In this document: positions 27,492-61,900 of the stretch, piece by piece
Numbering within the stretch: the first letter of the stretch is position 1
Layout: each line of letters starts with the position of its first letter
NCBI GenBank assembly: GCA_964016885.1
Contig: OZ024741.1
Span: forward strand, 208,134,001-208,198,000
From: Eledone cirrhosa
Lineage: Eukaryota
Reading direction: 5' to 3'
DNA: 64,000 nucleotides
Program-made: the position numbers and the translations under genes
The notes under the pieces: generated by a model
Databases searched by the model: none
Told to the model about the DNA's origin: nothing
Seen by the model: the letters and a program-made list of their open reading frames with translations, nothing else

Positions 27492-27637
27492 CGAAGGAGA
27501 GTAAATTTTAGGGTAAAGGTATTAGTGAGAAATACCAATATTAATTTAATTTCTTGTTATAGATCTAAATTCCTTGTGTTTTAAATAAGATTGGTATTTC
27601 TCACTAGTACTTTTACCCTAAAATTTACTCTCCTTCG
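27492..27637. repeat. ~47-bp inverted repeat at the 5' truncation point of a Penelope-like fragment
   Basis: 27492-27538 is the reverse complement of 27590-27637. Confidence 0.8.
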
Positions 27638-27668
27638 ATAGATAGATAGATAAATAGATAGATAGATA
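27637..27668. repeat. (GATA)n tract at the 3' end of Tx1 copy A
   Basis: Direct reading. Confidence 0.95.
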
Positions 27669-27913
27669 CATAACTTTCTATTTATTTGCCACCAGGGCAT
27701 CAAAGATTGGGACAAATACAGGGGGGGGGGGGTACATACATTTCAAAGGACGTGTATAAACATATAACAAATCAAATTCAACAATCGAAGTCCTCAATAG
27801 GGAGGGGGCGTTGACGTGGGTCGCACACAGCCCCGAAAAAATGTGCAACCCTCCTCCTCGGGAGCACAAAGAGCGGGTGCTGCCTTCCCCTCCTCATTCT
27901 TCTCCTCTCTCAC

Positions 27914-30900
27914 CTACAGGCTGATATAGAGAGAAGGCCCATTCACTCGGGCCATTCTCGCCACTTTCACCCACCTTTCATAAAACGTGCTGGGGTAGAG
28001 CACCTGTCTCTCCATTCTGATCCTTCTAAAATGGTACTTGAAAAAAAGGACCAGTTGTTGGCCGGAGAGAAAGGTGTCTGACCTCAGCCCTTTCAACCTC
28101 GTCCACCATAGCTATCACACAGAGGAAAACCGCCCCTCCTTCGTTTTTGAAGGCGGTTTAATCGTGACAATGTACTCGGTGTTCAACCGGATTGGTCCTA
28201 CCCGCGACAGTAGTCGTTCCACGTAGCCCCACAGATCAGCAACGCCCGAGCAGTGTACGAATGTGTGCGCGACAGTTTCGTCGTGAAGCACGCATCTCGG
28301 ACAGATCTTCTTCGAGGGGTCTCTACCCGGGCGCCCGTGTCTGTAGAGCTTGTTCCGAACGGCTAGAGCTCCTCGGTAGCACTGTCAAGCCAGGGACTTT
28401 TGGAAGTTGTCCATCGGTCCCGGGCCGAACGTCCTACCGAACAGAATGGCTAGCTCGTTTTCCTCCATGCCCAGAGCCTCTCCGAGAACGTTGTTGCACT
28501 TGCTGCGCAACAACCCTCTATAGAATGTTGAGGTTGAGTCTCTACTGATTGCCGGATCCGCTTGCCACAGGGCCAGTCGCCCACTTTTCTCGGTCTTTGC
28601 AGTTCGGTGAGTGAGACGAGTCAGGAAAAGGGGCCCATACCGGCTGGCCGGTGAGGAATACCTGGAGGTGCCGTAGCCTTAATGCGTGTCTACGCATCTT
28701 CAGTCACGGCATCCCCAGCCCTCCGTCCCAAGGGTCTTGACAGCAGATGGATCTTCTCACCAAAGAGGCTCGCTTCTTCCAAAGGAATCGGAAGAGCGCG
28801 CGCTCCATTTTGGCGAGCGTTTTTGCTGGGGAAGGCACGACGGTCAAGCGGTAGAAGATGACTGACGCTATATAAGTGTTCGCCACCTCCGCTCGACCTT
28901 TCAGGGATAATTTGCACTCGGCCCACTTCTGGACGAGTACAAACACCCTGCCCCTTACCTCGTCCCAGTTTTTCTCCGCCTGGAGGTCCGATACGAACCA
29001 GACCCCGAGCAGCTTCACTGGTCCCTCCGTCCAGCGTCCGACGACGCCGTCGGAGGGCATCGGTTTGCCTCTCCACGTTCCGAGTTGCAAACCGACGGAC
29101 TTGTCCCGGTTCAGCTTGGCTCCTGTAAACCTTTCGTATTCCTCCAGTAAGGTGCCGATGTGCCCGATTTCCGAGACGCACAAAACAATTACTGTCACGT
29201 CATCGGCGTAGGCCGACACCACTTTCCGCAATCCCAGTTCCAAGGGGATTCCCTGCAACAGCTCCAACTTCCGCAGTAGTGGCTCAAGAACCAGCACATA
29301 CAGAAGGGAGGAGAGAGGGCACCCCTGTCGGATGGATCACGTGATTTGGAACGGCTCAGAAATGTAGCCGTTCACCTGGACCCTCGAGCAGGTGTTGCTG
29401 CTGTTCATTGCAGCAATCCAGCCCCTGAAAACGGGTCCGATCCTGCCGCCGCGAGCACCGCATCCAGGTACCGATGGTCGACCCTATCGACCGCCTTATA
29501 TTGATCCAAATTGAACAAGGCCCCACCAAATACGGGATCGTTCCCTACCCTCTCTACGATGTATCGCACGAGGTGGAAGTTGTCGTGTATGGACCTGGAC
29601 GCGATTGCGCATGTCTGCGCTTCTCCCACTAGGTTCCGACGACAAGCGCCAACCTCTTCGAAATTTTTAACTCTGTGTTTAGCAGAGTTATGGGTCTGAA
29701 GTTATCTATGTCATCCCCCTTGTTCTCGTCCTTCCTCACCAGCGTGACAACGCCCTTGGTCACAGAACTGGGAATTCTCCCAGTTACAGTAGACCGCCTC
29801 GAGGAGATCGGAGAACAAGTCCGGCATCGCTACATAAAGTTCGTATGGTAGACCATCGAGACACGGAGATTTGTGTTTGCCGCATTGGCTCAGCGCTTCC
29901 CCTATTTCAGCGGCTGAAATCGCAGGACTTCGCCTCCCCGTCCCAGAGCCGCAGCAGACCGTCAAGGTATGGACCGAAATCCATGGCCTCACCCGGCCCG
30001 CCGCCCCTCCCGAACAGTCGTGCAAAGCGCCGTTGAGAGGCCACGCACATCCGCTCAGGTTCAAGGATCACACGTCCATCCTGGTCCTTCAAAGAGCGAA
30101 TCGTGGACTTGTTGCCACTTTTCGCCTCTGTCACTCGGGCCCAGCAAACAGCTTTGTCTCCCTCGTTACGCAGAGCACGTATTTTACTCCTGACAACGCA
30201 GACCTCGTGCTTCGCGTCAAAGAACTGGTCTAGGGCCATTCTTGACGCCAGCACGCCGGCCACGTTTCCGCTCCTAATCGCTTCTTCTACTCTATCTATC
30301 AATTCCCTATCAGTTCTATTCCTATCTGATGCTAATGCCTGGCTAAAACCTATCGATTTTATTCTAATTTCTCTCTTGAGAGAACCCCACCACCTGCTGT
30401 TGACAATTGCCCCCGTCAACCGCTGCTTGTAAGCTTTGTTTGTCGGTAAGGACAAGTTTAGCTTCCGGTAACCGGGTCATTGTCTATGGGTTCTATCAAA
30501 GTTGACCACTCCGGTCACCAACTTGTGATCCGAATGGTCAACCATGAACATTCGTGGACAGCTTAATATGTCCCTATCCTTATTTTTAACTAGGAACCTA
30601 TCTAGGTACGACCTAGATGTTCCGCTGCGATTATTCCACGTCCTCAGTGGCACAGTCGGAAAATCTAGTCGATATCTATCGGCTAGATCAAATCGGCCGA
30701 TTAACCGTTTGAGGCTGTTACACCTCCCTCGTTCGGGACATGCCTCTACATAGTCCCAAAGTGCATCCAGGATACCATTCCAGTCCCCCACTAAAAGCAA
30801 GGAGCAAGACGTTCCCAGAAAAGTCTCTAGGCATTGGAAGAAGTCCGGTCGCGGAGTCCCAGATGGGGCATACGCTACCACCAGCCTGAAGGCTCCACCT

Positions 30901-31196
30901 TCACTACTGCCGACGTCTAGAGCCACCAGTCGACCCTCCGGGTCCAGGTGTACCTTCCGTGTTGCGAGGCCCAGGTGTTTTCGCTGCAGAACGCCTCCCC
31001 CCACCGGCTGACAGAGAGAAGCATAGATCTCAAAATCGTCGAAGATGGCGGCCAGTTGGTGCTCGCTGCTGATCCTGGACTCGCAAATAGCTATCACATC
31101 CATTCTGTGCGACTTGAGGTCATTTAAGTGTTTGCCCTGCTTCCAGGACATCCCCAGGCCGCGCACATTTAAACATCCAACTCTTATAAAAGCCAT
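27914..31196 (-). pseudogene. Tx1 ORF2 (APE endonuclease-reverse transcriptase), frameshifted, copy A
   Basis: GCLNVRGL, YAP, GDWN, YLDRF, SDH (APE); KSPCLDG, DQYKAVDRVDH, YADD (RT); ends NGPSLYISL*. Confidence 0.92.
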
Positions 31197-31239
31197 GTTG
31201 GTGGTGAATAGTTTAGAGTGGAGAAAAAGGAAAAGTCAC

Positions 31240-33054
31240 CTACCTGTCCTTCTCCTGGGGACCAGGCTGCACAATTTCCATGGGGGTGTCGGCGGGGTTG
31301 TTTGGTGGGGTGGTGGTTTGGGATGTGGTGGGGTTGGGGTGTTTGGTAGGGGAGTGGTGTCTGGTATGGTGGTGGGGAAAGATTTCAAGAGGACGCGGTT
31401 GATAGGTCTAGTGCAGGGTTCCCCACGTCCTCGGGAAAGTTCTGTTTGAGCATTGCGTAGGTGTCCCTTGGGACCCTAATCATTTTTAAATGCAGTTTAG
31501 TCGCCGCGTTGGTGAACATTCTCCCTTCGGTTTCCACCGAAGGGTCTTTGTCTATTGTTTGCACAAGTGTTTTGTTGTTTGTGTTGATGTATGTATACTG
31601 TTTTTGTTGTGTTGTGTTTGTTTTTGTTTGTTGTTCTTGTGTATGTTTTTGTTTGTGCTGGTGGTTGTGTGTTTGTTGCATTTTGTGAATGTGGTGCCTT
31701 CTTTTCTTTCTTTTTACCGGTTGAAATGGTTCTCCCTCGTCGTCACTGGGTGACGTTGATAAGGGTCCTCGTCCGTGTTGTTGGGGAGGGGTATATTTTG
31801 GGGCTTTGTTGTGGTTGCTTTTGTATTTGGTTTAGGTGGGGAGGGTTTGGGTGGGACAGTGTCTTGTGTTGTTATTTTTTCGTGTTGTTGCGGTTGTTGT
31901 TGTTGTTGTGGTGGTGGTGGTTCTGTTGTTGTGTTAGGGGTGGGCAGAAGCGTCTTTGGGGAGGGGGGGATTTATAAGGGGACCGGAAGCCCTCAGGTGA
32001 CCACTCCTTGAACAGTGGTAGCATGAAGGCCGCCTGCCCTCAACAGAAATGTTTATGAAGGCGACTCCATCCAGTGACACACGCTGCGGTATCCTAGCTC
32101 TCCGTTCTGGTCTCATTTGGACCAGAACTTCAAGGCTATTGCCGCCGAATACGCCCCCGGTGGATTCGCCTATCGAAAGGATTGTGTCCTCATCTTCTAA
32201 GAATCCCGTTAGCACCCACCCAATGCTCGCATTTGGCCTGATGCCCGAGATTCTTATCTTTTGAGTTCTTTTCCCCATATATGTGGGGGAAAAGGTGTAT
32301 GCTTTGGATACAATTGGCCACACAGAATATTTCCGTGCCGCTAACTCATCTTGCATTAAAACAGATATGCTTCCATACAATTTCCCCTTCTGTATGAAAG
32401 CGATATCCTTCCTGGCACTACTTCGGACCAGCTCGAATTCGCATTGGGACAATTGAGCCGGTTTCCAAGTCGTGCTTCAAACTGTCCCAAAGATTACGGT
32501 CCTCAGGACTGTGTCCCTTCTAATTTCTTCGGGCGAGGTAATTGTGAATTCCCCACCTTCCCCGAAAGTTACCAAGTTCCTTCCTTCTTTCGGCAATTTC
32601 TTGGCATTCGAGATGTCCAGTGCCTTGTATGTCTGCGTTTCTCGGACCGCCTGTGCGAAGGAAACTGCAGCTGTGGGTCCGTTTCTTTCGTGTTGTTATC
32701 ATTGTTGTTGTTGTTATTCGTTGTTATTATTCGTTGTTGTTATTCGTTGTTGTTATTCGTTGTTGTTATTCGTGTTGGCTTGCTTTTTTCCTTTGTTGGT
32801 GTTGTCATTATTGCTGCTGTTGGTTGTGTTGTTATTGTCATTGTTGCTGTTGTTGGTTGAGTTGTTATTGTCATTGTTGTTCTTGTTCGTGTAATTGTTA
32901 CTTTTGCGGTTTTCACCCATTTCCACAATTTTTTCTTTTGATTCCGTGGTGTCTTTTGCGGGAGTGAGGAGGGAAGGCTTACAGCGTTGTGCTGCTACCT
33001 TATCTCTGTCACTTTCCTTGGGGGCGTGGCATGTGTCGTATTAATGGCGTCCAT
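31240..33054 (-). pseudogene. Tx1 ORF1 (nucleic-acid-binding, zinc knuckle), disrupted, copy A
   Basis: Fragments 31934-32452 and 31385-31681 are homologous to ORF1 of copies B and C; the start codon is approximate. Confidence 0.8.
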
Positions 33055-33259
33055 TGTCACAAAACGACTTTTCATCGACAACTTATAACTATTAAATTTA
33101 GCCCCAAAAAGGGGCGCAATTTATTTTACCCAACGTCTGCAGGCCCAGGCGAGGGGTTAAACACAACAAATAACAAGTTACTTAAACAAACCTACCGCTT
33201 CTCGTAACAAGTTTACGACAAAATGCAGGAGCGAAACAAAAACACGTCTATCTTCTCCG

Positions 33260-33327
<68 letters not shown>
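33260..33327. repeat. (GATA)n tract between Tx1 copies A and B
   Basis: Direct reading. Confidence 0.97.
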
Positions 33328-33543
33328 TTCTTTATTTGCCACAAGGGGACAATACAAAGACATGCCGGGGATTTTACATACAGTCGTGTAAAAATATAAA
33401 ACAAACAATTACAACAATCGAAATCTCCAATAAGGGGGAAGCACCACAAATGGGTTGTTTAATACTCCGTCGAGAGAACAACCCTCAACTCCAGGAGCGT
33501 GTTGTGCAAGTGCTCCTTTCTTCCTTTTGCTCTATTCTTTAAC

Positions 33544-36500
33544 CTACAGGCTTATAAACAGAGAAGGCCCAATCACTCGTGATACTTAAAGAAGGGAATC
33601 AATTGTTGTCCGGAGAGAAAGGCATCTGTCCTCAGTCCTCTCAATCTCGTTCACCATACAACTTCTTTCACCATAGCCACTGTACAGAGGAAAACCCTCT
33701 CTCTTTCGTTTTTGAAAGAGGCTGGCGGTTTGATCCTTACTATAGACTCGGCAATCAACTGAATTTGTCCCATACGCGACAACAGTTGTTCTGCATAGTT
33801 CCACAGGCCGGTTAATCCCAGGCAGTGTAAAATTGCGTGCAGGACTGTTTCAATGTCTTGCGCGCATCTTGGACACGTCCTCCTGGAAGGATCCGTGCCT
33901 GTAGATCTTGTCCGTGCCTGTAGATTTTGTCATGAACTGGTAGAGCTCCTCGGTAGCACTGCCAGGTCAGGGACCTCTGGAAGTTGTCCATAGGTGGCGG
34001 GGGAAAAGTCCTACCGAACAGACTGGTGAGCTCATCGTCTTCGACGCCCAGAGTCTCTCCGAGCACGTCGTCGCCCTTGTAACGTACAATCCCTCTATAG
34101 AATGTCGAAGTGGAGTCTCCACTGATTGCTCTGCTCGCTTGACAGAGGACTGTGAGCGCCTAAGCGCATTCAATGTGCCAGGCGCCCATCGTTTTCGGTC
34201 TTTTCTTGACCCACGACTGCAGCTGCGTCAGCGAGACGAGCTGCTGGAAAGCCTGGCTCACAAACGGTGCTCACACCGGTTGGGGGTCGGTGAGGAATAC
34301 CTGGAGATGCCGCAGCCTCAGCGCATGTTTGCGCATCATCAGCCACGGTATTCCCAGCCCTCCGTTGGAAGGGTGCCGACAGCAGACGGATATCCTCACC
34401 AGCGGAGCCTGCTTCTTCTACAGAAACTGGAAGAGCGTACGTTCCATCTTGGCGGGGTGTTCACGCGGACAAGGCACGACAGTGAAGCGGTAGTAGATGA
34501 CGGACGCTATGAAAGTGTTCGCCACCTCCACTCGACCTTTCAAGGACAGTTTGCACTCTGCCCACTTCTGGGTGAGCGCAAACACCTCGGCCGTGACCTC
34601 GTTCCAGTTTTTCTCCACCTGGAGGTCTGGACCGAACCAGACTCCGAGCAATTTTTCCGGTCCGTCCGTCCAGCATCCAACGTCGCTGTCGGACGTCATC
34701 GGTTTGCCTCTCCACGTACCGAGTTGCAAACCGACAGACTTGTCCGGGTTTAGTTTTGCTCCCGTCAGCGTTTCGTATTCTTTCAGTAAGTTGCCGATCA
34801 CCAAGATTTCCGAGGTACTCGACACCATTACCGTCACGTCGTCGGCACAAGCCGACGCCCGCTTTGCGCAGTCCCGGTTCTAGAGTGATGCCCTGCAACA
34901 GCTCCAATTTCCGCAGTAGAGGCTCTAGAGTCAATACATACAGAATGGAGGAGAGAAGGCACCCTGTCGAATGGAACGTGTGATTGCGAACGGCTCCGAT
35001 AGGTAGCCGTTCAACTTGACCCTCGAGCAGATGCTGATGTGCATCGCCTCGATCCAGCCTCTGAAAACGGGACCGAAACCGGCCGCCTTGAGAACCGCTT
35101 CCAAGTATCGATGGTCGACCATATCGAATGCCTTAGACTGATCCATATTGATTTACTACCCACCCTCTCTATGATGTATCGCATGAGGTGGAGGTTGTCG
35201 TGTATGGACCTGGTCGGGATTGCACACGTTTGCGCTTTCCCTACCAGGTTCTCGACGACAAGCGCCAACCACGTCGTTAGCACCTTGGCCAAAATCGTTA
35301 ACTCTGTGTCTAGCATAGTTATGGGCCTGAAGTTGTTAATTTCCTGCCCCTTGTTCTCGTCTTTCCTGATCAGCGTTACTACGCCCTTGCCTGCAGAACT
35401 GGGAATTCTCCCGTTCTGCTGCCAATTGCAGTATACGGCTTCGAGGACGCCAGAAAACAAGTCCGGCATGCCTATGCAAAACTCATAGGGTAGACCATCT
35501 AGACCGGGTGACTTGCGTTTCCCGCAGCGGTCCAGAGCGTCCCGTATCTCAGTGTCCGTGATCGGTCTTTCGCAGAACTCGGCGTCCGTGTTCGAGAGAC
35601 GCGGCAGGCCGTCGAGGTATGAACTAATGTCCATTGCCCCGTTCAGCTCACCGTCGTTCTGCTCAAACAGTCGCGCAAAGTGCTGCTGAAAGACCGCGCA
35701 CATTTGCTTGGGGTCAAGTAGCACGCGTCCGTTTTGTTCTTTAAAAGACCGAATCGTGGACTTGTTGCCACTTTTTGCCTCCGCCACTCGGGCCCAGCTG
35801 ACAGCTTTCACTCCTTCGTTTCCTAGAGCACGTGTTTTGCTTCTGACCACGCAGCCTTCGTGTTTCGCATCGAAGAACTGGTCCCTGCCGTTCTCAACGC
35901 TAACACTCAAGCCGCGTTACCACTTCTAAGTGCCTCCTCTACCTTGGCTACTAGTTCTCTTTCTATTTTGTTTTTCTTTAAAGCTAACTCTCTACTAAAC
36001 CCTATCGATTCTACTCTAATTGCCTCTCTTGAGAGAGTACCACCATCTATTGTTGACGATGGCTCCCGTTAACTGTTGCTTGACTAGTCTACTTATCCGT
36101 TCACTGTAAGCTTTACGTGCCAGCAACGACACGTTCAGCTTCCAGTATCCGGGTCCCTGTCTACGTGTTCTGTCACGGTTGACTATGCAGACGACTTATT
36201 TGTCGTTTGAATAGGCAACCATGTGCATTCCTGGACAGCTTAACATCTCCTTGTCCCTTTCTCTAATGAAGAACCTATCTAAATACGAGCGAGATGTCCC
36301 GCTGCTGTTTGCCCACTTCCACTGTGGTGGAGTCGGGAAATCCAGTCGATATCTATCGACCAGTTGGAATTGGCCGATTAAAGTGCTGAGGCTGTTGCAC
36401 CCCCCTCTACTGGGACATGCTCCCACATAGTCCATCGTGCATCTAGGATACCATTCCAGTCCCCCACTAAGAGTAAGGAGCGAGACGTTCCCAGAAAAGA

Positions 36501-36887
36501 CTCTAGACGTTTAAAGAAATCTGGCCGTGATTGCGATTGCCTGGTCGGGGCATAAACGGCCACCAGTCTGAAGGCTCCACCTCCAATACTGTTCACGTCT
36601 AGGACTACCAGTCTATCCTCTGACTCCAAGTGTACTTGCTGTACTTCGACGTCCAGGTTCTTCCGAAACATGACGGCCACTCCACCTTAACCTACTGGCT
36701 GACAGAGAGATGCGTAGATCTCAACGTCGTCGAAGATGGGGGTTAGTTGCTGCCTGTTGTGGATGCTGGACTCGGTGATGGCTATCACATCCATACTGTG
36801 TGTCCTAAGGTTGTTTAAAAGTTGGCCCTGTTTCCAGGGCATCCCTAGGCCACGCATATTCACGCTTCCAATTCGTAAACTACCCAT
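33544..36887 (-). pseudogene. Tx1 ORF2, frameshifted, copy B
   Basis: GSVNMRGL, VYAP, GDWN, YLDR; KSPGLDG, NFRPIT, DQSKAFD, LSLKGR. Confidence 0.92.
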
Positions 36888-36928
36888 GTTGGTGGAGAAG
36901 AGTTGGCGAAAAGGACGAAAATGTGCAC

Positions 36929-38333
36929 TTACCTTTTCGTTTCCTGGAGATCGGGTTGTTCAATCTCCATTTCAGTTCTGGTGGGGGTGTTGGGTGGGGC
37001 GGGGAAACATTTTTATAAGACGCGGTTAATAGGTTTTTGACAGGGGTTGCCAATATCCTGCGAAAACTGTTCTTTCAATTTCTGATAGGTTTCTATCGAA
37101 ACCCTTATTAGTTTCAGGTGTGGAGACAATTCTACTTTGACGAAAGTTTTGCCCTCCGTCTCCACCTTGGGGTTTTGGGAGATGACCTCCATCAAACTGT
37201 GGTGTTGTTTGTGTCTGTGGTTGTATGTTGGTGTTGGTGATTTGAGTTTGGGGGGTTTTGTGGTGTCTCTTTTTTTGTTTTTTTAGATTTCAGAGGCTCT
37301 CCTTTTTCTTCACTTAAAGAAGGAGAAGCAGCCTCATCTGTTAATGCATAATCATCGTCAGGAGTGTGGGGTAGGGGTATGTTGTGTGGTAGTGGTGTTA
37401 CGTTATGTGTGTTTTGAGGTAGTGTTTGATGGAGTGGGATAGGGTGGGGCTGTGTTCTTCAGGGGTGTTGTCTGTGTTTTTTCTGTTGTTGGTTGAGTGG
37501 CTGTTTGTTTTGGTGTGTTTGCTCGTTTCGTCTGTTGTTGTACTTGTAGTGGTGGTTGTTTTGGTGTTGGTGTTGGTAATAGTGTTTTTTTAATGATGTT
37601 GTTGTCGTGTGTTTGTGAAGGTGGGGCCTTTAGGTCTGCTGTGCTACCACAGCGAAAGCAATGAGGTTCACATCCCTCCACCGAAACGTTTATCTTGTTG
37701 TTGTCGTCGATGACGAGTTTTTCGGGTATATTGGAGATTCTCTCCGGCCTCATCTGCATCAGAATCTCCAAATCAGTACCCGCCCACCTTTGTCTAATAG
37801 ACTTTCGTATTGAAAGAATAGCATTAGTCTCTGGCTCCACGAAGCCAGCCAAGATCCACCAGATGTTAATGTTTGATGGTATATATTTTTTTTGTGTCAT
37901 TTTTCCGATGTACGTAGGGAAAAAGGTGAATGATTTTGACACCTTTGGTGTCACAGAATGTTCTTGGGAGAGTGCCTCGCTTTTAAACAGTACGGAAATA
38001 CTTCCGTACTGTTTTCCTCGTTGAAGAAAGTCAATATTTTCTAGAGTCTCCTTCAATGTGGCTTCTATATCTCCTTCACTCACAAATATTGGCTTTCTCG
38101 TTGTGTTTGAGACAGTACTGAAGGTCACTGTCCTTCGAATTGTCTCTTCTTTTATTTCGAGGGGTGAATTGATTCTAAACCCACCCTTGTCTTCGAAAGT
38201 TACAAATTTTCTCCCTTGCTGGAGCATATCTCTTGCATTGGAGATGTCAAGATTTATAAAATCTTGTTTTTTGTTCACTGTTTCAGCGAAAGACATTTTT
38301 TGTTTGTGGTGTTGCTACTGCTGCTGCTGCTGC

Positions 38334-38388
<55 letters not shown>

Positions 38389-38600
38389 AGCCTCGGTGTT
38401 AGAAATCGCAATTTCTTGACGAGGTGAAACTTTATGTGTAGATGTATCTATGGAGTTGTTGTTGTTGGCTGTTTCATGTGTATGTATATTAATAGGTTTG
38501 ATTCCTGTGTTTTCCTGTGTGTTATTTTTCTCCGCATCGACGGTAGACATTTTTAAATGTTCAATTGGAAAAAAAAATGTTCCTTGTTGACGACGTCCAT
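36929..38600 (-). pseudogene. Tx1 ORF1, disrupted, copy B
   Basis: ORF 37403-38296 (CFRCGS knuckle remnant); Asn-rich N-terminus from (AAC)n; ends EQPDLQETKR*. Confidence 0.8.
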
Positions 38601-38814
38601 AGTGGCAGAAGCAGACTTAACGTTAATATCTGCCTTTCTACCTCTCTTCTCTCTGTTAACGTTCTCCGGCGTTCTTTCCGAGTTATTCATGTTTTATAGT
38701 CGGCAAAATTTGATTTTTTTAAACAACTTTTAAATTAAATTTTCGCCCCTAAAGGGGCAAAAAATGGATTTACCACCCAGCTGACAATTACCAGCGATGT
38801 TCCACAAGTCAGGC

Positions 38815-38903
<89 letters not shown>
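38815..38903. repeat. (GATA)n tract between Tx1 copies B and C
   Basis: Direct reading. Confidence 0.97.
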
Positions 38904-39164
38904 TCTTTCTTTATTTGCCACAGAGGCGTACAAAAATGCGACATTACAAGACGTGACGGCGGGGGTTTTACATAAAAATTACTTTAACATTAATAAATAA
39001 CAATAGAGTATATATAATAAAATAACATATATAATAAAATAACAATTGAAATCCCCAATAGGGGGAAACGTTACTTGTTTTACACCCCGTGGATAGAACA
39101 AACCTCAACACTAGGAACTCGTTTTGTAGGTGTTCCCGTCTTCCCTCTGTTTATCTTCCTCGAC

Positions 39165-42100
39165 CTACAGGTTTATATGCAGAGAAGGCCCATTTTCGCC
39201 ACATTCACCCACCTTTCAGGGAATTTACTGGGGTGTAGCAACTCTCTCTCCACTCTCACCTTCCTTCTGAAGTGATACTTAAAGAAGGGGATAAGTTGTT
39301 GTCCGGCGAGAAAGGTGTTTGCCTCAGTCCTTTTAACCTCGTCCACCATATTACCTCTTTCGCCATAGCCACCAGACAGAGGAAAACCGCCTCTCCTTCG
39401 TTCCTAAATGAAGGCGGCGGGGTGATCCTCACGATGGACTCGGCTAACAACTGGATGCGTCCTACACGTGACAGTAGCTGTTCGAGATGATTCCACAGGT
39501 CAGTCACTCCTGGGCACTGATCAATTGCGTGCAGAACGGTTTCAATGTCCTGCTCGCATCTTGGACAGGTCCTTTTGGCAGAATCTCTGCCAGGGCGTCC
39601 GTGCCTGTAGATCTTGTCACGAACCGGTAGAGCTCCTCGGTAGCACTGCCAGGCCAGAGACCTCTGGAAGTTATCCATAGGCCCTGGACGGAAAGTTCTC
39701 CCGAAAAGACTGGTCAGTTCGTCCTCCTTGATGCCTAGAGTTTCCCCGAGAACGCCGTCGCACTTATCCGCCACTAATCCCCTATAGAATGTCGAAGTGG
39801 AGTCTCCGCTGATTACCGTTTCCGCTTGCTAGAGGGCTGGGAGCGCCTGTAGGCACTTGAGGTGTCAGGCACCCATTTTAGGTCTTTGCTTGACCCAGGA
39901 CTTCAGCTCTGTTAGTGAGACGAGTTGTGGAAGAGCTTGTCTCACAAATGACAGCCACACCGGTTCACCGGTCAGGAATACCTGGAGATGGCGTAGCCTC
40001 ACCGCGTGCTTGCGCATCATCAGCCAAGGCATGCCCAGCCCTCCGTTAGAAGGGTGATGACAGCAGATGGATCTCCTCACCAATGGAGCCTGTTTCTTCC
40101 AGAGGTACTTGAAGAGTAGGCGTTCCATTTTGGTAAGGTATTCGCGGGGCAAGGCACGACTGTCAAGCGGTAGTAGATGTCGGACGCTATGTAAGTGTTC
40201 GCCACCTCCGCTCGACCTTTCAAGGAGAGTTTGCACTCAGCCCACTTCTGGGTGAGTGCAAATACCTTCGCTGTGACCTCGTTCCAGTTCTTGTCCACCT
40301 GGAGGTCTGGACCAAACCAGACTCCGAGCAATTTCACCGGTCCTTCCGTCCAGCGTTCAATGACACTGTCGGAAGGCATGGGTTTGCCTCTCCATGTGCC
40401 GAGTTGCAAACTGACAGACTTGTCTGAGTTTAGTCTTGCTCCTCTCAACTTTTCGTATTCCTGTAATAGGTAGCCGATTACCCCGATTTCCGAGGTTTTC
40501 GACACCATTACGGTTATGTCGTCGGCATAGGCCGACGCTGCTTTCCGCAGTCCTGGTTCGATCGGGATGCCCTGCAACAGCTCCAACTTCCGCAGTAACG
40601 GCTCGAGAGTCAGTACATACAGAATGGAGGAGAGAGGGCATCCCTGACGGATGGAACGCATGATTTGGAATGGCTCTGATAGGTAGCCATTCATCTTGAC
40701 TGCCGAACAGATCCTGGTGTGCATCGCAGCGATCCAGCCTCTGAAAACGGTACCGAAGCCGGCTGCCTTGAGAACTGCTTCAAAGTATTGATGGTCGACC
40801 CTATCAAATGCCTTAGACTGATCTAAATTGATCAGAGCCCCACCGAAGCCAGGTTTACACCCTACCCTCTCTATGATGTATCGCATGAGGTGGAGGCTTT
40901 AGTGTATGGACCTGGTCGGAATTGCACACGTTTGCGCTTCCCCTACCAGGTTCTCAACCACAAGCGCCAGCCTCGCTGCTTACACCTTGGCCAAAATCTT
41001 AAACTCTGTGTTGGGCAGAGTTATGGGCCTGAAATTGCTCATCTCTTCCCCCTTGTTCTCATCTTTCCTGATCAGCGTTAATACGCCTCTACCTACAGAA
41101 CTTGGAATCCTCCCGTTCTGCTGCCAGTTGCAGTAGACCGCTTCGAGGACGCCAAAGAACAATCTGGCATGCCTATGTAAAACTCATAGGGTAGACCATC
41201 TAAACCGGGTGATTTGCGTTTCCCGCAGCGACCTATGGCATCTTCTATTTCGCCCGCTGTGACCGGCCTTTCGCAGCTCTCCGCATCCGTGATCGAGAGT
41301 CACGGTACGCCGTCGAGGTTGGATCTGAAGTCCATCACCTCACTCGATGTACCTCTTTGCCCGAACAGTTGTGCAAAGTGCTGCTGGAAGGCCGTGCACA
41401 TCTGCTTGGATTCAAGTAGAATGCGTCCATCTTTGTCTTGCAAAGACCGAATTGTGGATTTGTTGCCACTTTTTGCCTCTGCCACTCGGGCCCAGCTAAC
41501 AGCTTTGGCTCCCTCGTTTTTTAGAGTACGTGTTATAAACAATACAACCTTCGAGTTTCACGTTGAAGAAATGGTCTAGTGCCGTTCTCGCCGCTAGCAC
41601 GTCAGCTGTACTTCCATTCCTAAGTGCCTCTGCTATTTTAGCTACCAGTTCTGTTTCAATTTTGTTTTTTTCTAAAGCTACTTCCTTGCTAAATGCTATC
41701 GATTCTATTCTAATTGCTATCTTGAGAGAGCTCCACCACCTGTTGTTGATGATCGCCCCCGTCAACTGGCACTTAACTAAGGTGCTAATCCATTTATTGT
41801 AGGCCTTACGCGCCGGGAGCGACATGTTTAGCTTCCAGTATCCGGGTCCCTGTCTAGTTCTATCAAGGTTGACTACGCAGGTGACTAATTTGTGGTCTGA
41901 ATAGGCAATCATGTACATTTGTGGACAGCTTAATGTTTCCTTATCATTCTGTCTAATTAAAAACATACGATCTAGAAGACCTAGTGCAGTTGCTCCACGT
42001 CCATAGTGGTGTACTTGGGAAGTCTAGTCGATATCTATCAGCCAGTTGGAATTGGCTGATGAGATGTTTGAGGCTATTACACCCCCCCTCTACTATCACA

Positions 42101-42565
42101 AGCTTCTTCATAGTCCCAACGTGCGTCTAAGATGCCATTCCAGTCCCCCGCTAACACTAAGGAGCGAGACGTTCCCAGGAATGGCTCCAGACGCTTGAAG
42201 AACTCTGGTCGCGATGTCCCATTCGGGGCATATACGGCCACCAATCTGAAAGCTCCACCTTCACTATCATTCACGTCCAGGACCAACAGGCTGCCCTCCG
42301 GATCCAAGTGAATCGTCTGTATTTTGAGATCCAATTTTTTTTGAAACAGAACAGCAACTCCCCCTCCACCTCCCGGCTGACAGAGAGATGCGTAGATTTC
42401 AAAATCATCGAACATGGGGGTTAACTGCTGCTTGTCGTGAGCCCTGGACTCGGTGATGGCTATCACATCTATACAATGTGACCTGAGATCATTTAAAATC
42501 TGGCCCTGTTTCCAGGACATGCCCAGGCCACGTACAATCAAACACCCAGCTTGTATAGTCGCCAT
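39165..42565 (-). pseudogene. Tx1 ORF2, frameshifted, copy C
   Basis: ORF fragments 42077-42565, 41496-41966, 40077-40886 and 39256-39774 give APE, RT and the C-terminal Cys/His motif. Confidence 0.93.
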
Positions 42566-42606
42566 GTTGGTGAAGAAGAGTTAAGGAGACAAAAAAACAG
42601 GAAAAC

Positions 42607-44399
42607 TTACCTTTTCCTTTCCTGGAGGTCGGGTTGTTCGATCTCCATGTCCAGATTGGTGGTGCTTGGGGAGGGAGGGAATCCTTTTAGCAGGACACGG
42701 TTAAGGAGCTTTTGGCAAGGGGTTCCACATCATGTGGGAAGTTCTCTTTTAAAGTTTCATACTGTAGAGTTGTTACCCTCATAAGTTTGAGGTTTGGGGG
42801 TGTGTCATTGGTGGGGAAGGTTTTCCCTTCCGTTTGTATTGTGGGATCCTTTTGGACAGTTTCCACCAGATCTTTGTTTCTCGTTTTTATGTATGTGTAA
42901 TGTATTTTGTTTTTTGTGTACTGTTTCTGTTTGTAGTTTTCTTTTTGTGGTTGGGGTTTGTGATTGTAGTGGTGTGGGTGTTTGTTTTGTTGGCGAAGTG
43001 TCTGGTTGTGTTGTTGGTGTGGTTGTCGTTTGTGGCGGTATGTTTATGTCAGTGTTGGGTGTGTGCGTCAGTGTTGATGTTCTTGTATTTTTTCTGTGTC
43101 TTTTTTGCTTATTCGATTCTTGAGGTTCCTCTTCATCCTCACTTGGAGATGTTGGGGTTCCTGTGTCTGAGGTGTTATCATTGTGGGTAGTTGGGAGGGG
43201 TATGTTGTGTTGTGGTGGAGTGTTTGTATGTGTGTGTTTGTGGGAGTGTTGGACTGAAGGGGAAGGGGTGGGACAGAGTTCTTCGGGGGAATTTTTGGTG
43301 TGGTGTCTTTTGTCGTTTGTGATAGTTGGGTGAATGTTGATGGTTTGGGGGTTGTGTTTTATTTTTGTTTTCGGGTGTGTCTGTTGTGGTTTTGGAGTTG
43401 GCAACAACGCCTTCTTTTGTTTTTCCACATCCAGCATTGGGCAAAATGCTTTTAAATGTGTGTTTTTTCCACATTTGAAACATTGTGGTCTTTTGCCCTC
43501 CACTGTGATGTGGACAACATGGTTATCATCAACCGGCACCCTTTCCGGTATTTTGTCATTCCTCTCCGGTTTCATTTGAACTAAAAGCTCAATTGAGATC
43601 CCACTCCAGTTCTGTCGGATTGATGTTTTTACAGAGAGGAGGTTGTCTTCACCCTCCTCCAAACAACCACCCAGGATCCACCAAATGTTGGTGCTTGGTG
43701 GGATCTGGGAGATCCTTATTTTATGGGTTCTTCTTCCCATGTATGTTGGGAAGATGTGTTGGCTCGTTCTAATTGGAGCCACCGAATATTTCTGGCGAGG
43801 GCCTCGCTTTTAAAGAGCACCGAGCTGCTCCCGTACTGCTTGGCCCTCTGGAGGTAAGCAATGTCTGGCATTGCCTCCTTTAGCGCGGTTTCCACTGTGC
43901 TATTACTTAAAGCCATCGGTTTCTTGGTTCGTGAGCAGATCGTCCGGAAGAAAATTGTTTTTCTAAAGGTCGCGGCTCTAATTTCCGGTGGAGTACTTAT
44001 ACGAAAGCCGTTACCTTCGAAACTTATATGTTGCGCAGCGTCCTTTAGGTGCTGCGCTTGGTTTGACAGATCTTTGGCAAGGCTTTCTGCAAACGTTTTA
44101 TTCTTTTGGTGTGTTTGGTTGTTTTCGTTTGTGCTGGAATTGTTGTTTTTGTTGTTCTTGTTATTGTTGTTGTTGCTGGTGCCGCCGGTTGTGTTGTATT
44201 TGTTTATAGTTTCACACATTTGGTTTTGGTTTGTTGCCATGGCAACGTCAAGCTGTTGGTTAGCAGGTGAACAAAATCCTTCCTCTGTCTGATCTTTGTC
44301 TGAGATATCTGCTACTATGACAGTGGAATGGGGAAGCTATAAGCATATCTTCCCCTTTCCTCCTTCGAATGTTGGTGAAGAAGCGGTTGCTTCAGCCAT
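42607..44399 (-). pseudogene. Tx1 ORF1, frameshifted, copy C
   Basis: ORFs 43716-44240 and 42805-43782 with a CX2CX4HX4C knuckle; ends EQPDLQERKR*. Confidence 0.82.
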
Positions 44400-44611
44400 T
44401 TTTTTTTTAAACGTTAGTTTTTCCCCAATTTTTTTTTTCATGTACTATTTCGCCCAAAGGCGTAGTATATTTTGAGAGACTGACCAGATCAAAATTTGAC
44501 CTGGCAGTCCCTCTACAAATTGGTATAAAAATGAAGGTTCACAGTCAAGAATTTCTATAGAAATATAAGCAGAACTTACCCAGCAAGTTTCATGCGTGTG
44601 TCCATCCCAAA

Positions 44612-44619
44612 AGATAGAT

Positions 44620-44701
<82 letters not shown>
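44612..44701. repeat. (GATA)n tract at the 5' end of Tx1 copy C
   Basis: Direct reading; no element 3' end lies beyond it. Confidence 0.97.
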
Positions 44702-55914: not shown

Positions 55915-58900
55915 GGTATGTTGTGGTGGTGGTAGATGTGTTGTGGTGTGTTGTGGTGGTGGTAGATGGGTTGTGCTGTGTTGTGGTGGTAGTTATATTG
56001 TGGTGTGTTGTGGTGTTAGATGTGTTGTGGTTGGTTGTGGTGGTAGTTATGTTGTGGTGTGTTGTGGTGGTAGTTATGTTGTGGTGTGTTGTGGTGGTAG
56101 ATGTGTTGTGGTGTGTTGTGGTGGTAGATGTGTCGTGGTGTGTTGTGGTAGTAGATGTGTTGTGGTGTGTTGTGGTGGTAGTTATTTTGTTGTGGGTTGT
56201 GGTGGTAGTTATGTTGTGGTGTGTTGTGGTGGTAGATGTGTTGTGGTGTGTTGTGGTGGTAGATGTGTTGTGGTGTGTTGTGGTGGTAGATGTGTTGTGG
56301 TGTGTTGTGGTGGTAGATGTGTTGTGGTGTGTTGTGGTGGTGGTAGATGGGTTGTGCTGTGTTGTGGTGGTAGTTATATTGTGGTGTGTTGTGGTGGTAG
56401 ATGTGTTGTGGTGTGTTGTGGTGGTAGTTATGTTGTGGTGTGTTGTGGTGGTAGTTATGTTGTGGTGTGTTGTGGTGGTAGATGTGTTGTGGTGTGTTGT
56501 GGTGGTAGATGTGTCGTGGTGTGTTGTGGTGGTAGATGTGTTGTGGTGTGTTGTGGTGGTAGTTATGTTGTGGTGTGTTGTTGTGGTAGTTAAATTGTGG
56601 TGTGTTGTGGTGGTAGATGTGTTGTGGTGTGTTGTGGTGTGTTGTGGTTGTGGCAGATGGGTTGTGCTGTGTTGTGGTGGTAGTTATGTTGTGGTGTGTT
56701 GTGGTGGTAGATGTGTTGTGGTGTGTTGTGGTGGTAGATGTGCTGTGGTGTGTCGTGGTGGTAGATGTGTTGTGGTCTGTTGTGGTGGTAGATGTGTTGT
56801 GGTGTGTTGTGGTGGTGGTAGATGGGTTGTGCTGTGTTGTGGTGGTAGTTATGTTGTGGTGGTTGATGTGTTGTGGTGTGCTGTAGTGGTAGATGTGTCG
56901 TGGTGTGTTGTGGTGGTAGATGTGTTGTGGTGTGTTGTGGTGGTAGATGTGTTGTTGGGTGTTGTGGTGGTAGATGTGTTGTGGCGTGCTGTAGTGGTAG
57001 ATGTGTTATGGTGTGTTGTGGTGGTAGATGTGTTGTGGTGTGTTGTGGTGGTAGATGTGTTGTGGTGTGCTGTAGTGGTAGATGTTTCGTGGTGTGTTGT
57101 GGTGGTAGATGTGTTGTGGTGTGTTGTGGTGGTAGGTGTGTTGTGATGTGCTGTGTTGTGGTAGATGTGTTGTAGTGTGTTGTGTTGTGGTAGATGTGTC
57201 GTGGTGTGTTGTGGTGTGTTGTTGTGGTGGTAGAATCTGTTGTGGTGTATTGTTGTGGTGTGTTGTGGTTTGTTATAGTGGTAGATGTGTTGCGGTTTGT
57301 GTTGTGGTAGATGAATGTGGTGTGTTCTAGTGGTAGATGTCTTGTGGTCTGTTGTGTAGTGGAGGATGTGTTGTGGTGTGTTGTGGTGTTTTTAGTGGTA
57401 GATGTGTTGTGGTGTGTTGTTATGTTAGATGTGTTGTTGTTTGTTGTTGTGTTGGTAGATGTGTTGTTGTGTGTTGTTTTGGTGGTAGATGTGTTGTGGT
57501 GTGTTCTAGTGGTAGATGTGTTGTGGTGTTTTGTTGTTGTAGATGTGTTGTTGTGTGTTGTGAGGTGGTAGATGTGTCGCGGTGTGTTGTTTGGGTGGTA
57601 GACATGTTGTGGTGTGTTCTGGTGGTGGTAGATGTATTGTGGTGTGTTGTAGTGGTAGATGTGTTGTGGTGTGTTGTGATGGTAGATGTGTTGTGGTGTG
57701 TTGTGCTGGTAGATGTTACGTGGTGTGTTGTGGTGGTGGTAGCAGTGTTGTGTGTTGTGGTAGTGGTAGCAGTGTTGTGTTTTGTTTTAATGGCATATGG
57801 GTTGAGATGTGTTGTTGTGGTGGTAGATGTGTTGTTGTAGTGGTAGATGTGTTGTGGTGTATTGTGGTGGTGGAAGATGGGTTGTGGTGTTTTGTTGTAG
57901 TGGTTGATGTGTTGTGGTTTGTTGTAGTGGTAGATGTGTTGTGGTGTGTTGTAGTGGTAGATGTGTTGTGCTGTGTTGTGTTGGTGGTAGATGTGTTGTT
58001 GTGCATTGTAGTGTTAGATGTGTTGTGGTGTGTTGTTGTAGTGGTAGATGTGTTGTGGTGTGTTGTTATAGTGGTAGATGTCTTGTGGTGTGTTGTGGTG
58101 GGATATGGTTTGTGGTGGTAGATGTGTTTTGGTGTGTTGTTGTAGTGGTAGATGTGTTGTGGTGTGTTGTTGTAATGGTAGATGTGTTGTTGTGTGTTAT
58201 GGTGGTAGATGTGTTGTGGTGTGTTGTTGTGGTAGATGTGTTGTGGGGTGTTGTAGTGGTATATGTGTTGTGGTGTGCTGTAGTGGTAGATGTGTTGTGG
58301 CGTGTTGTGGTGGTAGATGTGTTGCGGTGTGTTGTGGTGGTAGATGTGTTTTGGTGTGTTGTTGTAGTGGTAGATGTGTTGTGGTGTATTGTAGTGGTAA
58401 ATGTGTTTATGTGTGTTTGTATAGTGGTAGATGTGTTGTGTTGCTGGTAGATGTGTTTTGGTGTGTTGTGGTGGTAGATGTGTTGTGGTGTGTTGTTGTA
58501 GTGGTAGATGTGTTGTGGTATTTTGTCGTGGTGTTAGATTTGTTGTGCTGTGTTGTGGTGGTGATAGATGTGTTTTGGTGTGTTGTGGTTTCTATGTGTT
58601 GTGGTGTGTTGTGATGGTGGTAGTTGTATTGTGATGTTTTTGCAGTGGTAGATTTGTTGTGCTGTGTTGTGGTGGTGATAGATGTGTTGTGGTGTGTTGT
58701 GGTTTTCTATGTGTTGTGGTGTGTTGTGTAGTGGTAGATGTGTTGTTGTGTGTTTTTGTAGTTGTAGATGTGTTGTTGTGGGTTGTGTAGTGGTGGATGT
58801 GTTGTGGTGTGTTGTGGTGGTAGATGTGTTGTGGTGTGTTGTTTTGGTAGATCTGTTGTTGTTTGTTGTTGTGGTGGTAGATGTGTTGTGTGTTGTTTTG

Positions 58901-61900
58901 GTGGTAGAGGTCCTGTGGTGTGTTCTAGTGGCAGATGTGTTGTGGTGTTTTGTGGTGGTAGATGTGTTGATGTGTGTTGTGGTGGTGGTAGATGTGTCGT
59001 GGTGTATTGTTGTAGTGGTAGATGTGTTGTGGTGTATTGTAGTGGTAGATAAGTTGTGGTGGGTTGTGGTGGTACATGTGTTGTGTTGTATTGTGAGGTG
59101 GTAGATGTGTTGCGGTGTGTTGTTTGGGTGGTAGACATGTTGTGGTGTGTTCTGGTGGTGGTAGATGTGTTGTGGTGTGTTGTAGTGGTAGATGTGTTGT
59201 GGTGTGTTGTGATGGTAGATGTGTTGTGGTGTGTTGTTGTGGTGGTAGTTGGGTTGTGGTGTGCTAGTGGTAGATGCGTTGTGTTGTGTTGTGGTTGTAG
59301 ATGTGTTGTGGTGTGTTGTGCTGGTAGATGTTACGTGGTGTGTTGTGGTGGTGGAGGCAGTGTTGTGTGTTGTGGTAGTGGTAGCAGTGTTGTGTTTTGT
59401 TTTAATGGTATATGGGTTGAGGTGTGTTGTTGTGGTGGTAGATGTGTTGTTGTAGTGGTAGATGTGTTGTGGTGTATTGTGGTGGTGGAAGATGGGTTGT
59501 GGTGTTTTGTTGTAGTGGTTGATGTGTTGTGGTTTGTTGTAGTGGTAGATGTGTTGTGGTGTGTTGTAGTGGTAGATGTGTTGTGCTGTGTTGTGTTGGT
59601 GGTAGATGTGTTGTTGTGTATTGTAGTGTTAGATGTGTTGTGGTGTGTTGTTGTAGTGGTAGATGTGTTGTTGTGTGTTATGGTGGTAAATGTGTTGTGG
59701 TGTGTTGTTGTGGTAGATGTGTTGTGGGGTGTTGTAGTGGTAGATGTGTTGTGGTGTGCTGTAGTGGTAGATGTGTTGTGGCGTGTTGTGGTGGTAGATG
59801 TGTTGCGGTGTGTTGTGGTGGTAGATGTGTTTTGGTGTGTTGTTGTAGTGGTAGATGTGTTGTGGTGTATTGTAGTGGTAGATGTGTTTATGTGTGTTGG
59901 TATAGTGGTAGATGTGTTGTGTTGCTGGTAGATGTGTTTTGGTGTGTTGTGGTGGTAGATGTGTTGTGGTGTGTTGTTGTAGTGGTAGATGTGTTGTGGT
60001 ATTTTGTCGTAGTGGTAGATGTTTTGTGGTTTGTTGTGGTGGTGTTAGATTTGTTGTGCTGTGTTGTGGTGGTGATAGATGTGTTTTGGTGTGTTGTGGT
60101 TTCTATGTGTTGTGGTGTGTTGTGATGGTGGTAGTTGTTTTGTGGTGTGTTTTTGCAGTGGTAGATTTGTTGTGCTGTGTTGTGGTGGTGATAGATGTGT
60201 TGTGGTGTGTTGTGGTTTTCTATGTGTTGTTGTGTATTGTAGTGGTAGGTGTGTTGTGGTGTGTTGTGGTAATGATAGATCTGTTGTGGTGTGTTGCGGT
60301 AGTGGTAGATGTGGTGTGGTGTGTTGTTGTAGTGGTAGATGTGTTGTGGTGTTTTGTAGTGGTAGATGTGGTGCGGTGTGTTGTAGTGGTAGATGTGTTT
60401 TAGTGTGTTGTGGTGGTAGATGTGTTGTGGTGTGGTGTGGTGTTAGATGTGTTCTGGTGTGTTGTAGTAGTGGTAGATGTGTTGTAGTGTGTTCTGGTGG
60501 TGGTAGATATGTTGTGGTGTGATGTGGTGATAGATGTGTTGTCGTGTGTTGTTGTAGTGGTAGATGTTTTGTGGTGTGTTGTTGTGGTAGATGTGGTGTC
60601 GTGTGTTTTTGTGGTGGTAGATGTGTTGTGGGCTGTTGTGGTGGTGGTAGATGTGCTGCGGTGTGTTGTTGTTGTGGTAGATGTGTTGTGGTGTATTGTA
60701 GTGGTAGATCTGTTGTGGTGTGTTGGTATAGTGGTAGATGTGTTGTGGAGCAGGTAGATGTGTTTTGGTTTGTTGTGGTGGTAGATGTGTTGTGGTGTGT
60801 TGTTGTAGTGGTAGATGTGTTGCGGTGTTTTGACGTAGTGGTAGATGTTTTGTGGTGTGTTGTGGTGGTGGTAGATGTGTTATGGTGATAGATGTGTTGT
60901 GGTGTGTTCTAGTGGTAGATGTGTTGTGGTGTTTTGTGGTGGTAGATGTGTTGTGGTGGTGGTAGATGTGTCGTGGTGTGTTGTTGTAGTGGTAGATGTG
61001 TTGTGGTGTGTTCTGGTGGTGGTAGATGTGTTGTGGTGTGTAGTAGTGGTAGATGTGTTGTGGTGTGTTGTGGTGGTAAATATGTTGTGGTGTGTTCTAG
61101 TGGTAGATGTGTTATGGTGTGTTGTTTTGGTGGTAGCTGTGTTGTGGTGTGTTGTAGTGGTAGATTTTTGTGGTGTATTGTGGTGGTAGATGTGTTTTGG
61201 TGTGTTGTGGTGATATATGGGTTGTGGTGTGTTGCTTTGGTGGTAGACGTGTTGTGGTGGGTTGTGGTGATAGATCAGTTGTGGTGTGTTGTTGTAATTT
61301 TAGATGTGTTGTGGTGTGTTGTATTGATTGTAGATGTGGTCTGGTGGTGGTAGATGTGTTGTGCTGTGTTGCGGTAGTGGTAGATGAGTTGTGGTGTGTT
61401 GTTGTAGTGATAGATATATTGTGGTGTGTTGTTGTAGTGGTAGATGTGTTGTGGTGGTGGCAGATGTGTTGTGGTGTGTTGTAGTGGTAGATGTGTTGTG
61501 GTAGATGTGTTGTGGTGTATTGTAGTGGTAGATGTGTTGTGGTGTGTGCTGGTGGTGGTAGATATGTTATGGTGTGTTGTGGTGATAGATGTGCTGTGGT
61601 GTGTTTTTGTAGTGGTAGATGTGTTTTGGTTTGTTGTTGTGGTAGATGTGGTGTTGTGTGTTGTTTTGGTGGTAGAAGTCTTGTGGGGTGTTGTGGTGGT
61701 GGTAGATGTGCTGCGGTGTGTTGTTGTTGTGGTAGATGTGTTGTGGTGTGTTGTTGTGGGGTTAGATGTGTTGTGGTGTGTTGTGTAGTGGTTGATGTGT
61801 TGTGGTGTGTTGTGATTGTTGATGTGTTGTGGTGTGTTCTAGTGGTAGATGTGTTGTGGTGTGTTGTGGTTGTAGATGTGTTGTGGTGTCTTGTGGTGAT

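Follow-up and report, generated by a model that had tools for sequence, protein, structure and literature searches.

An inverted repeat enclosing ORF2 and a splice-donor-like motif on the ORF1 stop in repeat-targeting LINE copies of Eledone cirrhosa

Three decayed copies of a long interspersed nuclear element (LINE), here called A, B and C, follow one another head to tail at 27637-44701 of the window, all on the minus strand and with (TATC)n between them. The window is the whole stretch analysed, 64,000 nucleotides (nt) of Eledone cirrhosa contig OZ024741.1 (positions 208134001-208198000; source genome 3.0 Gb). In these copies and in their relatives an imperfect inverted repeat of about 110-120 nt flanks the second open reading frame (ORF2), and a motif like a 5′ splice site (the donor) lies on the stop codon of ORF1. 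The RNA helix predicted from the repeat would mask this donor and limit ORF2 translation, a reading to which we give a probability slightly above one half. Complementarity and covariation of the two repeat arms, conservation of the donor, loss of the opposing acceptor in young families and missing spliced retrocopies are the observations behind it. An earlier sequence-only reading of the window had taken ORF2 for an intron running from the ORF1 stop to the ORF2 stop, which is probably not the explanation here. Family letters (A-D, F-I, W-Z, Y1 and Y2) are labels coined in this analysis, and a slash within a motif marks the would-be splice junction.

The 5′ arm runs from 45 nt before the end of ORF1 through the spacer to 22 nt into ORF2, and is complementary to a 3′ arm that takes in the final 27 nt of ORF2 and reaches 95 nt into the 3′ untranslated region (UTR). 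The helix is a prediction from sequence comparison and folding. Predicted duplexes of the arms reach -80 to -122 kcal/mol, with z-scores of -4.0 to -8.3 against dinucleotide shuffles in all 12 single copies, A, B and C included, and the pairing of the arms beats every other ORF2 window in the five single copies tested (5/5). For models of families Y1, Y2, Z, X, W and I the z-scores are -3.6 to -7.3 against mononucleotide shuffles, and the arms surpass all other windows in five of the six, W showing a tie. Stability is higher for the sense than for the antisense duplex in 9/10. Folded alone, single arms are unremarkable in A and C and mildly stable in B (z -1.7 and -2.1). When whole RNAs of 3.7-3.9 kb were folded, the helix appeared in 9 of 13, including all three copies with an intact ORF2, and in the Y folds it starts at the donor or a few pairs before it. 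An ungapped inverted-repeat search recovered only part of the B helix among the five longest pairs listed per copy, because the repeat contains indels and G-U pairs.

Pairing within a family was the best of 5,040 permutations over seven lineages after row and column effects had been removed. Across eight families 20 of the 49 consensus pairs change on both sides, and the observed pairing was reached by only 2 of 2,000 permutations. Whole blocks are swapped between families, as for GTGCAGCC with GGTTGCAC versus GAACAACC with GGTTGTTC, and GTGAGT with ACTCAC versus GTAAGT with ACTTGC. In the duplexes the start context ACA-T-GGC pairs with the stop context GCCTGT (its CCTGT reading TCTGT in Y), Y switching to GAC with GTC or GA with TC; CTCT ahead of the stop has AG-rich letters beyond the start as its partner, and in families A-G the GT that follows the ORF2 stop pairs with the AC preceding the start. 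The donor itself pairs with CACYYRC in the 3′ UTR, fully in B, F, Y1, Y2 and Z and with one mismatch in A and C. Both signs of a conserved helix, family-specific complementarity and two-sided changes, are present in these sequences.

The donor exceeds chance and extends well beyond the three copies. All six motifs that the sequence-only reading had reported, the three donors and the three CCTGTAG/GT ends of ORF2, were found again at the positions in Table 1, and in A, B and C the frame ends in Arg-stop on the donor, so that the ORF1 stop does lie inside a 5′ splice site consensus. The rest of the spacer had been described as diverged, but its 3′ half (AACT..CACCAACATGG) is common to the copies. 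Neither are three copies informative as such: they prove little because 229 of 412 fourfold-degenerate sites are invariant across the A, B and C subfamilies, and two kept bases would be expected about 0.3 of the time. A pattern without the donor found 2,140 ORF1/ORF2 junctions, and 28 of the first 30 retain GTRRGT, as GTAAGT, GTAGGT or GTGAGT depending on the subfamily. Of 13 family models, 11 carry G/GTRRGT, the exceptions being single-copy H (GTAACT) and W (GTAATT). Scored with approximate animal frequencies, not with a matrix for this species, the donor ranks first among about 230 GT sites in 9 of the 13 models, second in three (two ties) and fourth in one. A score of at least 5.6, that of the weakest majority-family donor, was reached at 1 of 643 background stop triplets, and none of the 643 carries a donor equal to those of B and C. 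The phase is NG/G-stop-GT in A, B, C, F, G, Y1 and Y2 and G/GT-RAG-stop in D, Z and X. In Y and Z the C-terminus of ORF1 does not resemble that of A-G, so coding for protein does not account for the donor. Of the marks of a spliceosomal intron spanning ORF2, the conserved consensus 5′ splice site is present. A B-type copy at L065 is cut off precisely at the donor, where an unrelated tandem repeat takes over; this is probably chance because the search pattern selects for breaks there.

Distant Tx1-like elements on metagenome contigs (26-31% identity to the query) gave a donor-like ORF1 end in one of eight (L166), apparently by chance, TAG/GT at the ORF2 end in none of eight and the helix in none of six, and no look-alike stretches were found in the other genomes scanned. 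Donor and helix are therefore limited to this clade, the distant elements mostly lacking them. Three of the distant elements (L163, L165 and L167) have 3′ flanks that we take to resemble small nuclear RNA genes.

How one LINE RNA yields much ORF1 and little ORF2 protein, and how it escapes splicing, is only partly understood. In the mechanism favoured here the donor would be a real U1 site, open only until the 3′ UTR is transcribed. The 3′ UTR would then pair over the donor and protect the full-length RNA from splicing or U1 retention, with the helix from then on covering the donor as well as the stretch ahead of the ORF2 start. Once in the cytoplasm, this helix may keep ORF2 initiation low until a ribosome terminating on ORF1 melts the 5′ arm. 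Because the donor lies at the outer end of the helix and the would-be acceptor about 40 pairs inward, the structure would hide the two sites and not join them.

Several points weigh against this mechanism. The helix gives no reason for keeping the donor, and donor masking is not universal because in D, G and X only part of the donor pairs. From 4 of the 13 whole-RNA folds (window copies A and B, the majority sequence of C, and X) the helix is absent, and its inner start-stop part, the less stable one, is replaced by local pairing in the majority sequences of A, B, D, F and G. Taken alone, the six close TATC families show 12 two-sided changes in 84, which is not significant (131 of 2,000 permutations), and the sequences scored are also those from which the consensus structure had been built. 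A role in blocking early polyadenylation is unsupported because the majority ORF2s contain no AATAAA.

At the ORF2 end the sequence-only reading had seen an acceptor, with a stop that is always TAG and always followed by GT. This applies to the TATC-targeting subfamilies (28 of 30 unselected copies) and fails in the wider clade, where the stop is TAA in 19 of 21 matches and the other two are family X with TAG/GC. One Y copy has a TAG stop, and Z ends in TAG/TT. The check across subfamilies upholds the donor and not the acceptor, the youngest families with intact 1,139-residue ORF2s (Y1 and Y2) ending in TAA. The supposed pyrimidine tract consists of the codons G-P-S-L, and another AG lies 4-15 nt upstream in 26 of 30 copies. 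Acceptor scores at the ORF2 stop are -6.2 to 1.9, ranking 4-127 among about 260 AG sites. The conserved 3′ splice site by which an intron would be known, with pyrimidine tract, AG-free zone and YAG, is not seen in these sequences. The resemblance to an acceptor is accounted for because its conserved letters pair with the ORF2 start region; it would mostly reflect this pairing partner together with the codons G-P-S-L..L-stop. An acceptor-like motif at the end of an ORF can be a by-product of RNA pairing, which calls for caution.

A second account, which we consider doubtful, is that the donor is indeed spliced to give an ORF1-only mRNA, with an acceptor specific to each family: A-G, X and Z would use the ORF2 stop, and Y1, Y2 and W a 3′ UTR site about 160 nt past the stop. 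Splicing would race the closing of the roughly 100-bp helix in a co-transcriptional switch, the U1 site on the ORF1 stop being open during ORF2 transcription and the acceptor and the antisense U1-like partner emerging within 40 nt of each other; once closed, the helix would lock the full-length RNA and clamp the start and stop codons of ORF2 together, one structure setting both the fate of the RNA and the ORF1:ORF2 ratio, and the short RNA would rarely be retrotransposed. The donor kept in both reading phases and next to unrelated ORF1 C-termini speaks for such splicing, as do the strong 3′ UTR acceptors of Y1, Y2 and W (score 5.9-6.9; a T run and then ACACGCAG, at about 6254 in L375 and 6180 in L385, and in L396), which the other families lack; joined to the donor, these acceptors would lengthen ORF1 by about 19 residues (a hand calculation). 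A precedent exists in plant Ty1/Copia elements, for which donor quality is reported to outweigh acceptor quality (PMC5580714). This account also stays alive because splicing at the ORF2 stop would end the frame within two codons in A, G, D, Z and X, five of the eight families that have an AG and whose phase is settled. The exact Arg-stop that had been claimed for the spliced product of copy A is indeed re-created there, and also in G. The immediate stop of family I was dropped from the count, its phase being unsettled in a single copy. Against splicing stand the products of B, C and F, which would extend ORF1 by 28-33 residues, the lack of one acceptor shared by all families, and the helix geometry, which covers both sites and does not bring them together.

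Nor have spliced copies been found in the genome. Four pattern searches for ORF2-less copies, which the sequence-only reading had suggested might arise, gave 6, 7, 2 and 3 matches with no junction among them, as against 7,907 for the unspliced pattern; the junction patterns covered families A, B, C, D, F and G, and the search with 3 matches was judged on 80 displayed letters per match. Truncated insertions would also show the junction because it lies only about 250 nt from the 3′ end. Spliced retrocopies therefore amount to at most roughly 4 in 10,000 in the covered families, assuming equal motif decay. Among 20 C-type loci internal deletions are common and none equals the precise intron. In sequencing runs X1-X3 (one sample, contigs only), which by their 3′-biased cover look like DNA, the joint L085 871-4349 was not seen among the best 15 of 822 joints, and no donor joint of L375 was among the best 15 of 584 (run X3 only). 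The bound on retrocopies does not limit the RNA itself, because an RNA without ORF2 needs mobilisation in trans, which is rare for L1 (PMC5860796).

It is improbable that donor and inverted repeat are functionless in RNA and persist as inherited relics, for instance of an old fold-back or template switch. The families are related, with ORF2 identities of 69-97% (about 70% between Y and A-G, between which 55-60% of fourfold sites are still identical), and the donor-like end of L166 might be counted in favour of such descent. The arms have nevertheless diverged between families while retaining family-specific complementarity, and the donor outlasts both changes of frame and replacement of the ORF1 end.

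Still less probable is the clade-wide precise intron itself, by which splicing from the ORF1 stop to the ORF2 stop would spawn copies like HAL1, the ORF1-only derivative of L1. The motifs in A, B and C, the TAG/GT of the unselected TATC-family copies and the exact Arg-stop in A and G agree with it. Against it, the acceptor is weak, with a competing AG upstream, and is lost in Y1 and Y2, whose TAA stops contradict a rule for the whole clade. HAL1 would be the genomic counterpart of the proposed ORF2 splice, and no copy with the ORF1 end joined to the 3′ UTR was found by the patterns for the six covered families.

Very improbable, finally, is a mini-intron in the spacer whose removal would fuse ORF1 to ORF2: the spacer contains the donor, a pyrimidine run and a TAAC-like motif, with a CAG just before CACCAACATG in F and G that would give an in-frame fusion (frame worked out by hand), but at only 34-39 nt it is shorter than introns usually are in animals, A, B and C lack the AG and D has it out of frame, and pairing with the purine-rich start of the 3′ UTR accounts for the pyrimidine run. 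Back-splicing of ORF2 into a circle was considered and rejected, since G has both CAG before the ATG and AG/GTGAGA at the stop and the other families lack one or the other.

Table 1. Positions in the window of the three LINE copies, their repeat arms and associated motifs.
Feature	Positions	Strand	Remark
(TATC)n	27637..27672		at 3′ end of A, likely target repeat
LINE copy A	27673..33259	-	decayed; stops and frameshifts break ORF1 and ORF2
A, 3′ arm of predicted helix	27819..27940	-	ORF2 end, TAG 27914-16, start of 3′ UTR
A, ORF2 remnant	27914..31196	-	
A, 5′ arm of predicted helix	31175..31288	-	ORF1 end, spacer, ORF2 ATG at 31196
A, donor-like motif	31238..31245	-	AG/GTAGGT on ORF1 stop
Further (TATC)n arrays	33260-33327, 38815-38903, 44612-44701		separating the copies
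LINE copy B	33328..38814	-	decayed
B, 3′ arm of predicted helix	33449..33570	-	TAG 33544-46
B, ORF2 remnant	33544..36887	-	
B, 5′ arm of predicted helix	36866..36977	-	ORF2 ATG at 36887
B, donor-like motif	36927..36935	-	AAG/GTAAGT on ORF1 stop
LINE copy C	38904..44611	-	decayed
C, 3′ arm of predicted helix	39070..39191	-	TAG 39165-67
C, ORF2 remnant	39165..42565	-	
C, 5′ arm of predicted helix	42544..42655	-	ORF2 ATG at 42565
C, donor-like motif	42605..42613	-	AAG/GTAAGT on ORF1 stop

By the ORF2 domains and separate ORF1 found in relatives, the copies classify as L1/Tx1-group retrotransposons without long terminal repeats (non-LTR). The Tx1 label is based on domain order and repeat targeting, not on a reverse transcriptase tree, and named Tx1 references were absent among the protein-search matches. 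The intact ORF2 of a sister family matched PF03372, PF00078 and PF13966 (endonuclease, reverse transcriptase and zf-RVT) above cut-off, its best PDB matches were LINE-1 ORF2p (E 2e-51) and R2 (3e-21), and it is 69% identical to ORF2 of the copy-C type. ORF1 lies upstream and separate, with open frames of about 650 codons and a CX2CX4HX4C motif in L375 and L383, for which a Pfam search gave no match. Each of the A, B and C subfamilies has at least 1,488-2,904 candidate copies, and for copy A the candidate relatives number at least 2,876. Arrays of (TATC)n border all three copies, and all five Y copies displayed end in (ATT)n. The more distant families Y1, Y2, Z, X and W were reached by protein search.

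The young (ATT)n-targeting sister families (L373-L392, for example L375 and L385) have intact 1,139-residue ORF2s and some copies head to tail, and the two families are 98% alike in ORF2 with different ORF1s. Mosaic elements occur among L309-L316, L307 and L320: in family G a spacer peculiar to the family precedes an A-type ORF2 and 3′ end, L307 joins an F-type spacer to a D-type 3′ end, and L320 joins a variant spacer to a C-type 3′ end. Several families, judged by eye, have in the 5′ UTR a short GC hairpin followed by A-runs (GCCCCTTTAGGGGCGAAA in B), seen on the minus strand near 33115 (A), 38755 (B) and 44460 (C) and also at the 5′ ends of L375 and L383. Directly after the tail of copy A, a 58-nt inverted repeat at 27492-27637 (91% complementary, arms 30 nt apart) looks like a small miniature inverted-repeat transposable element. 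At 55922-63976 there is an 8-kb tandem array with a 27/54-nt unit, extreme strand skew and many long open frames, perhaps a mucin-like exon rich in Thr and His, perhaps a minisatellite.

By descent, the closest known systems are the microsatellite-targeting Tx1 elements. Kibi on (TC)n and Koshi on (TTC)n share with the present elements two ORFs, the endonuclease, reverse transcriptase and zf-RVT domains and insertion into simple repeats; the targets here are instead (TATC)n and (ATT)n, and neither a splice donor nor a long-range helix is described in the available parts of that report (PMC4494074). The main text of an Octopus vulgaris repeat annotation, as far as accessible, lists L1-Tx1 families and does not contain the string 'splic' (PMC13282606). 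No description of an ORF2-enclosing LINE helix was found in the literature searched, which was without most subscription journals, Repbase Reports and supplements. By logic, the closest analogies are the U1 site of the Arabidopsis Ty1/Copia element EVD and the long-range pairing of retroviruses. The short GAG RNA of EVD likewise has a conserved U1 site ending the structural gene, with a reported role beyond splicing in blocking early termination; EVD differs as an LTR element with a short intron and a proven RNA (PMC5580714), whereas here the acceptor is not conserved and the antisense partner of the donor is 3.4 kb away. Human L1 also has LINE RNAs with splice sites, and the resulting SpIREs make up as many as about 3% of the full-length copies in a subfamily, but these splices keep ORF2 and so allow mobility in cis, and their sites do not frame ORF2 (PMC5860796); spliced copies were not found here. 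In retroviruses long-range pairing switches the fate of the RNA and U1 is used at the major splice donor without splicing, the interactions described acting within the 5′ leader (PMC12789967), whereas the helix predicted here would loop out a whole 3.4-kb ORF of a non-LTR element. Reinitiation models for LINE ORF2 have been reviewed (PMC5972666), and a covarying helix that encloses exactly ORF2 and lies over both donor and start codon would offer a concrete mechanism, testable by mutation. It is an unusual RNA design in a known kind of element.

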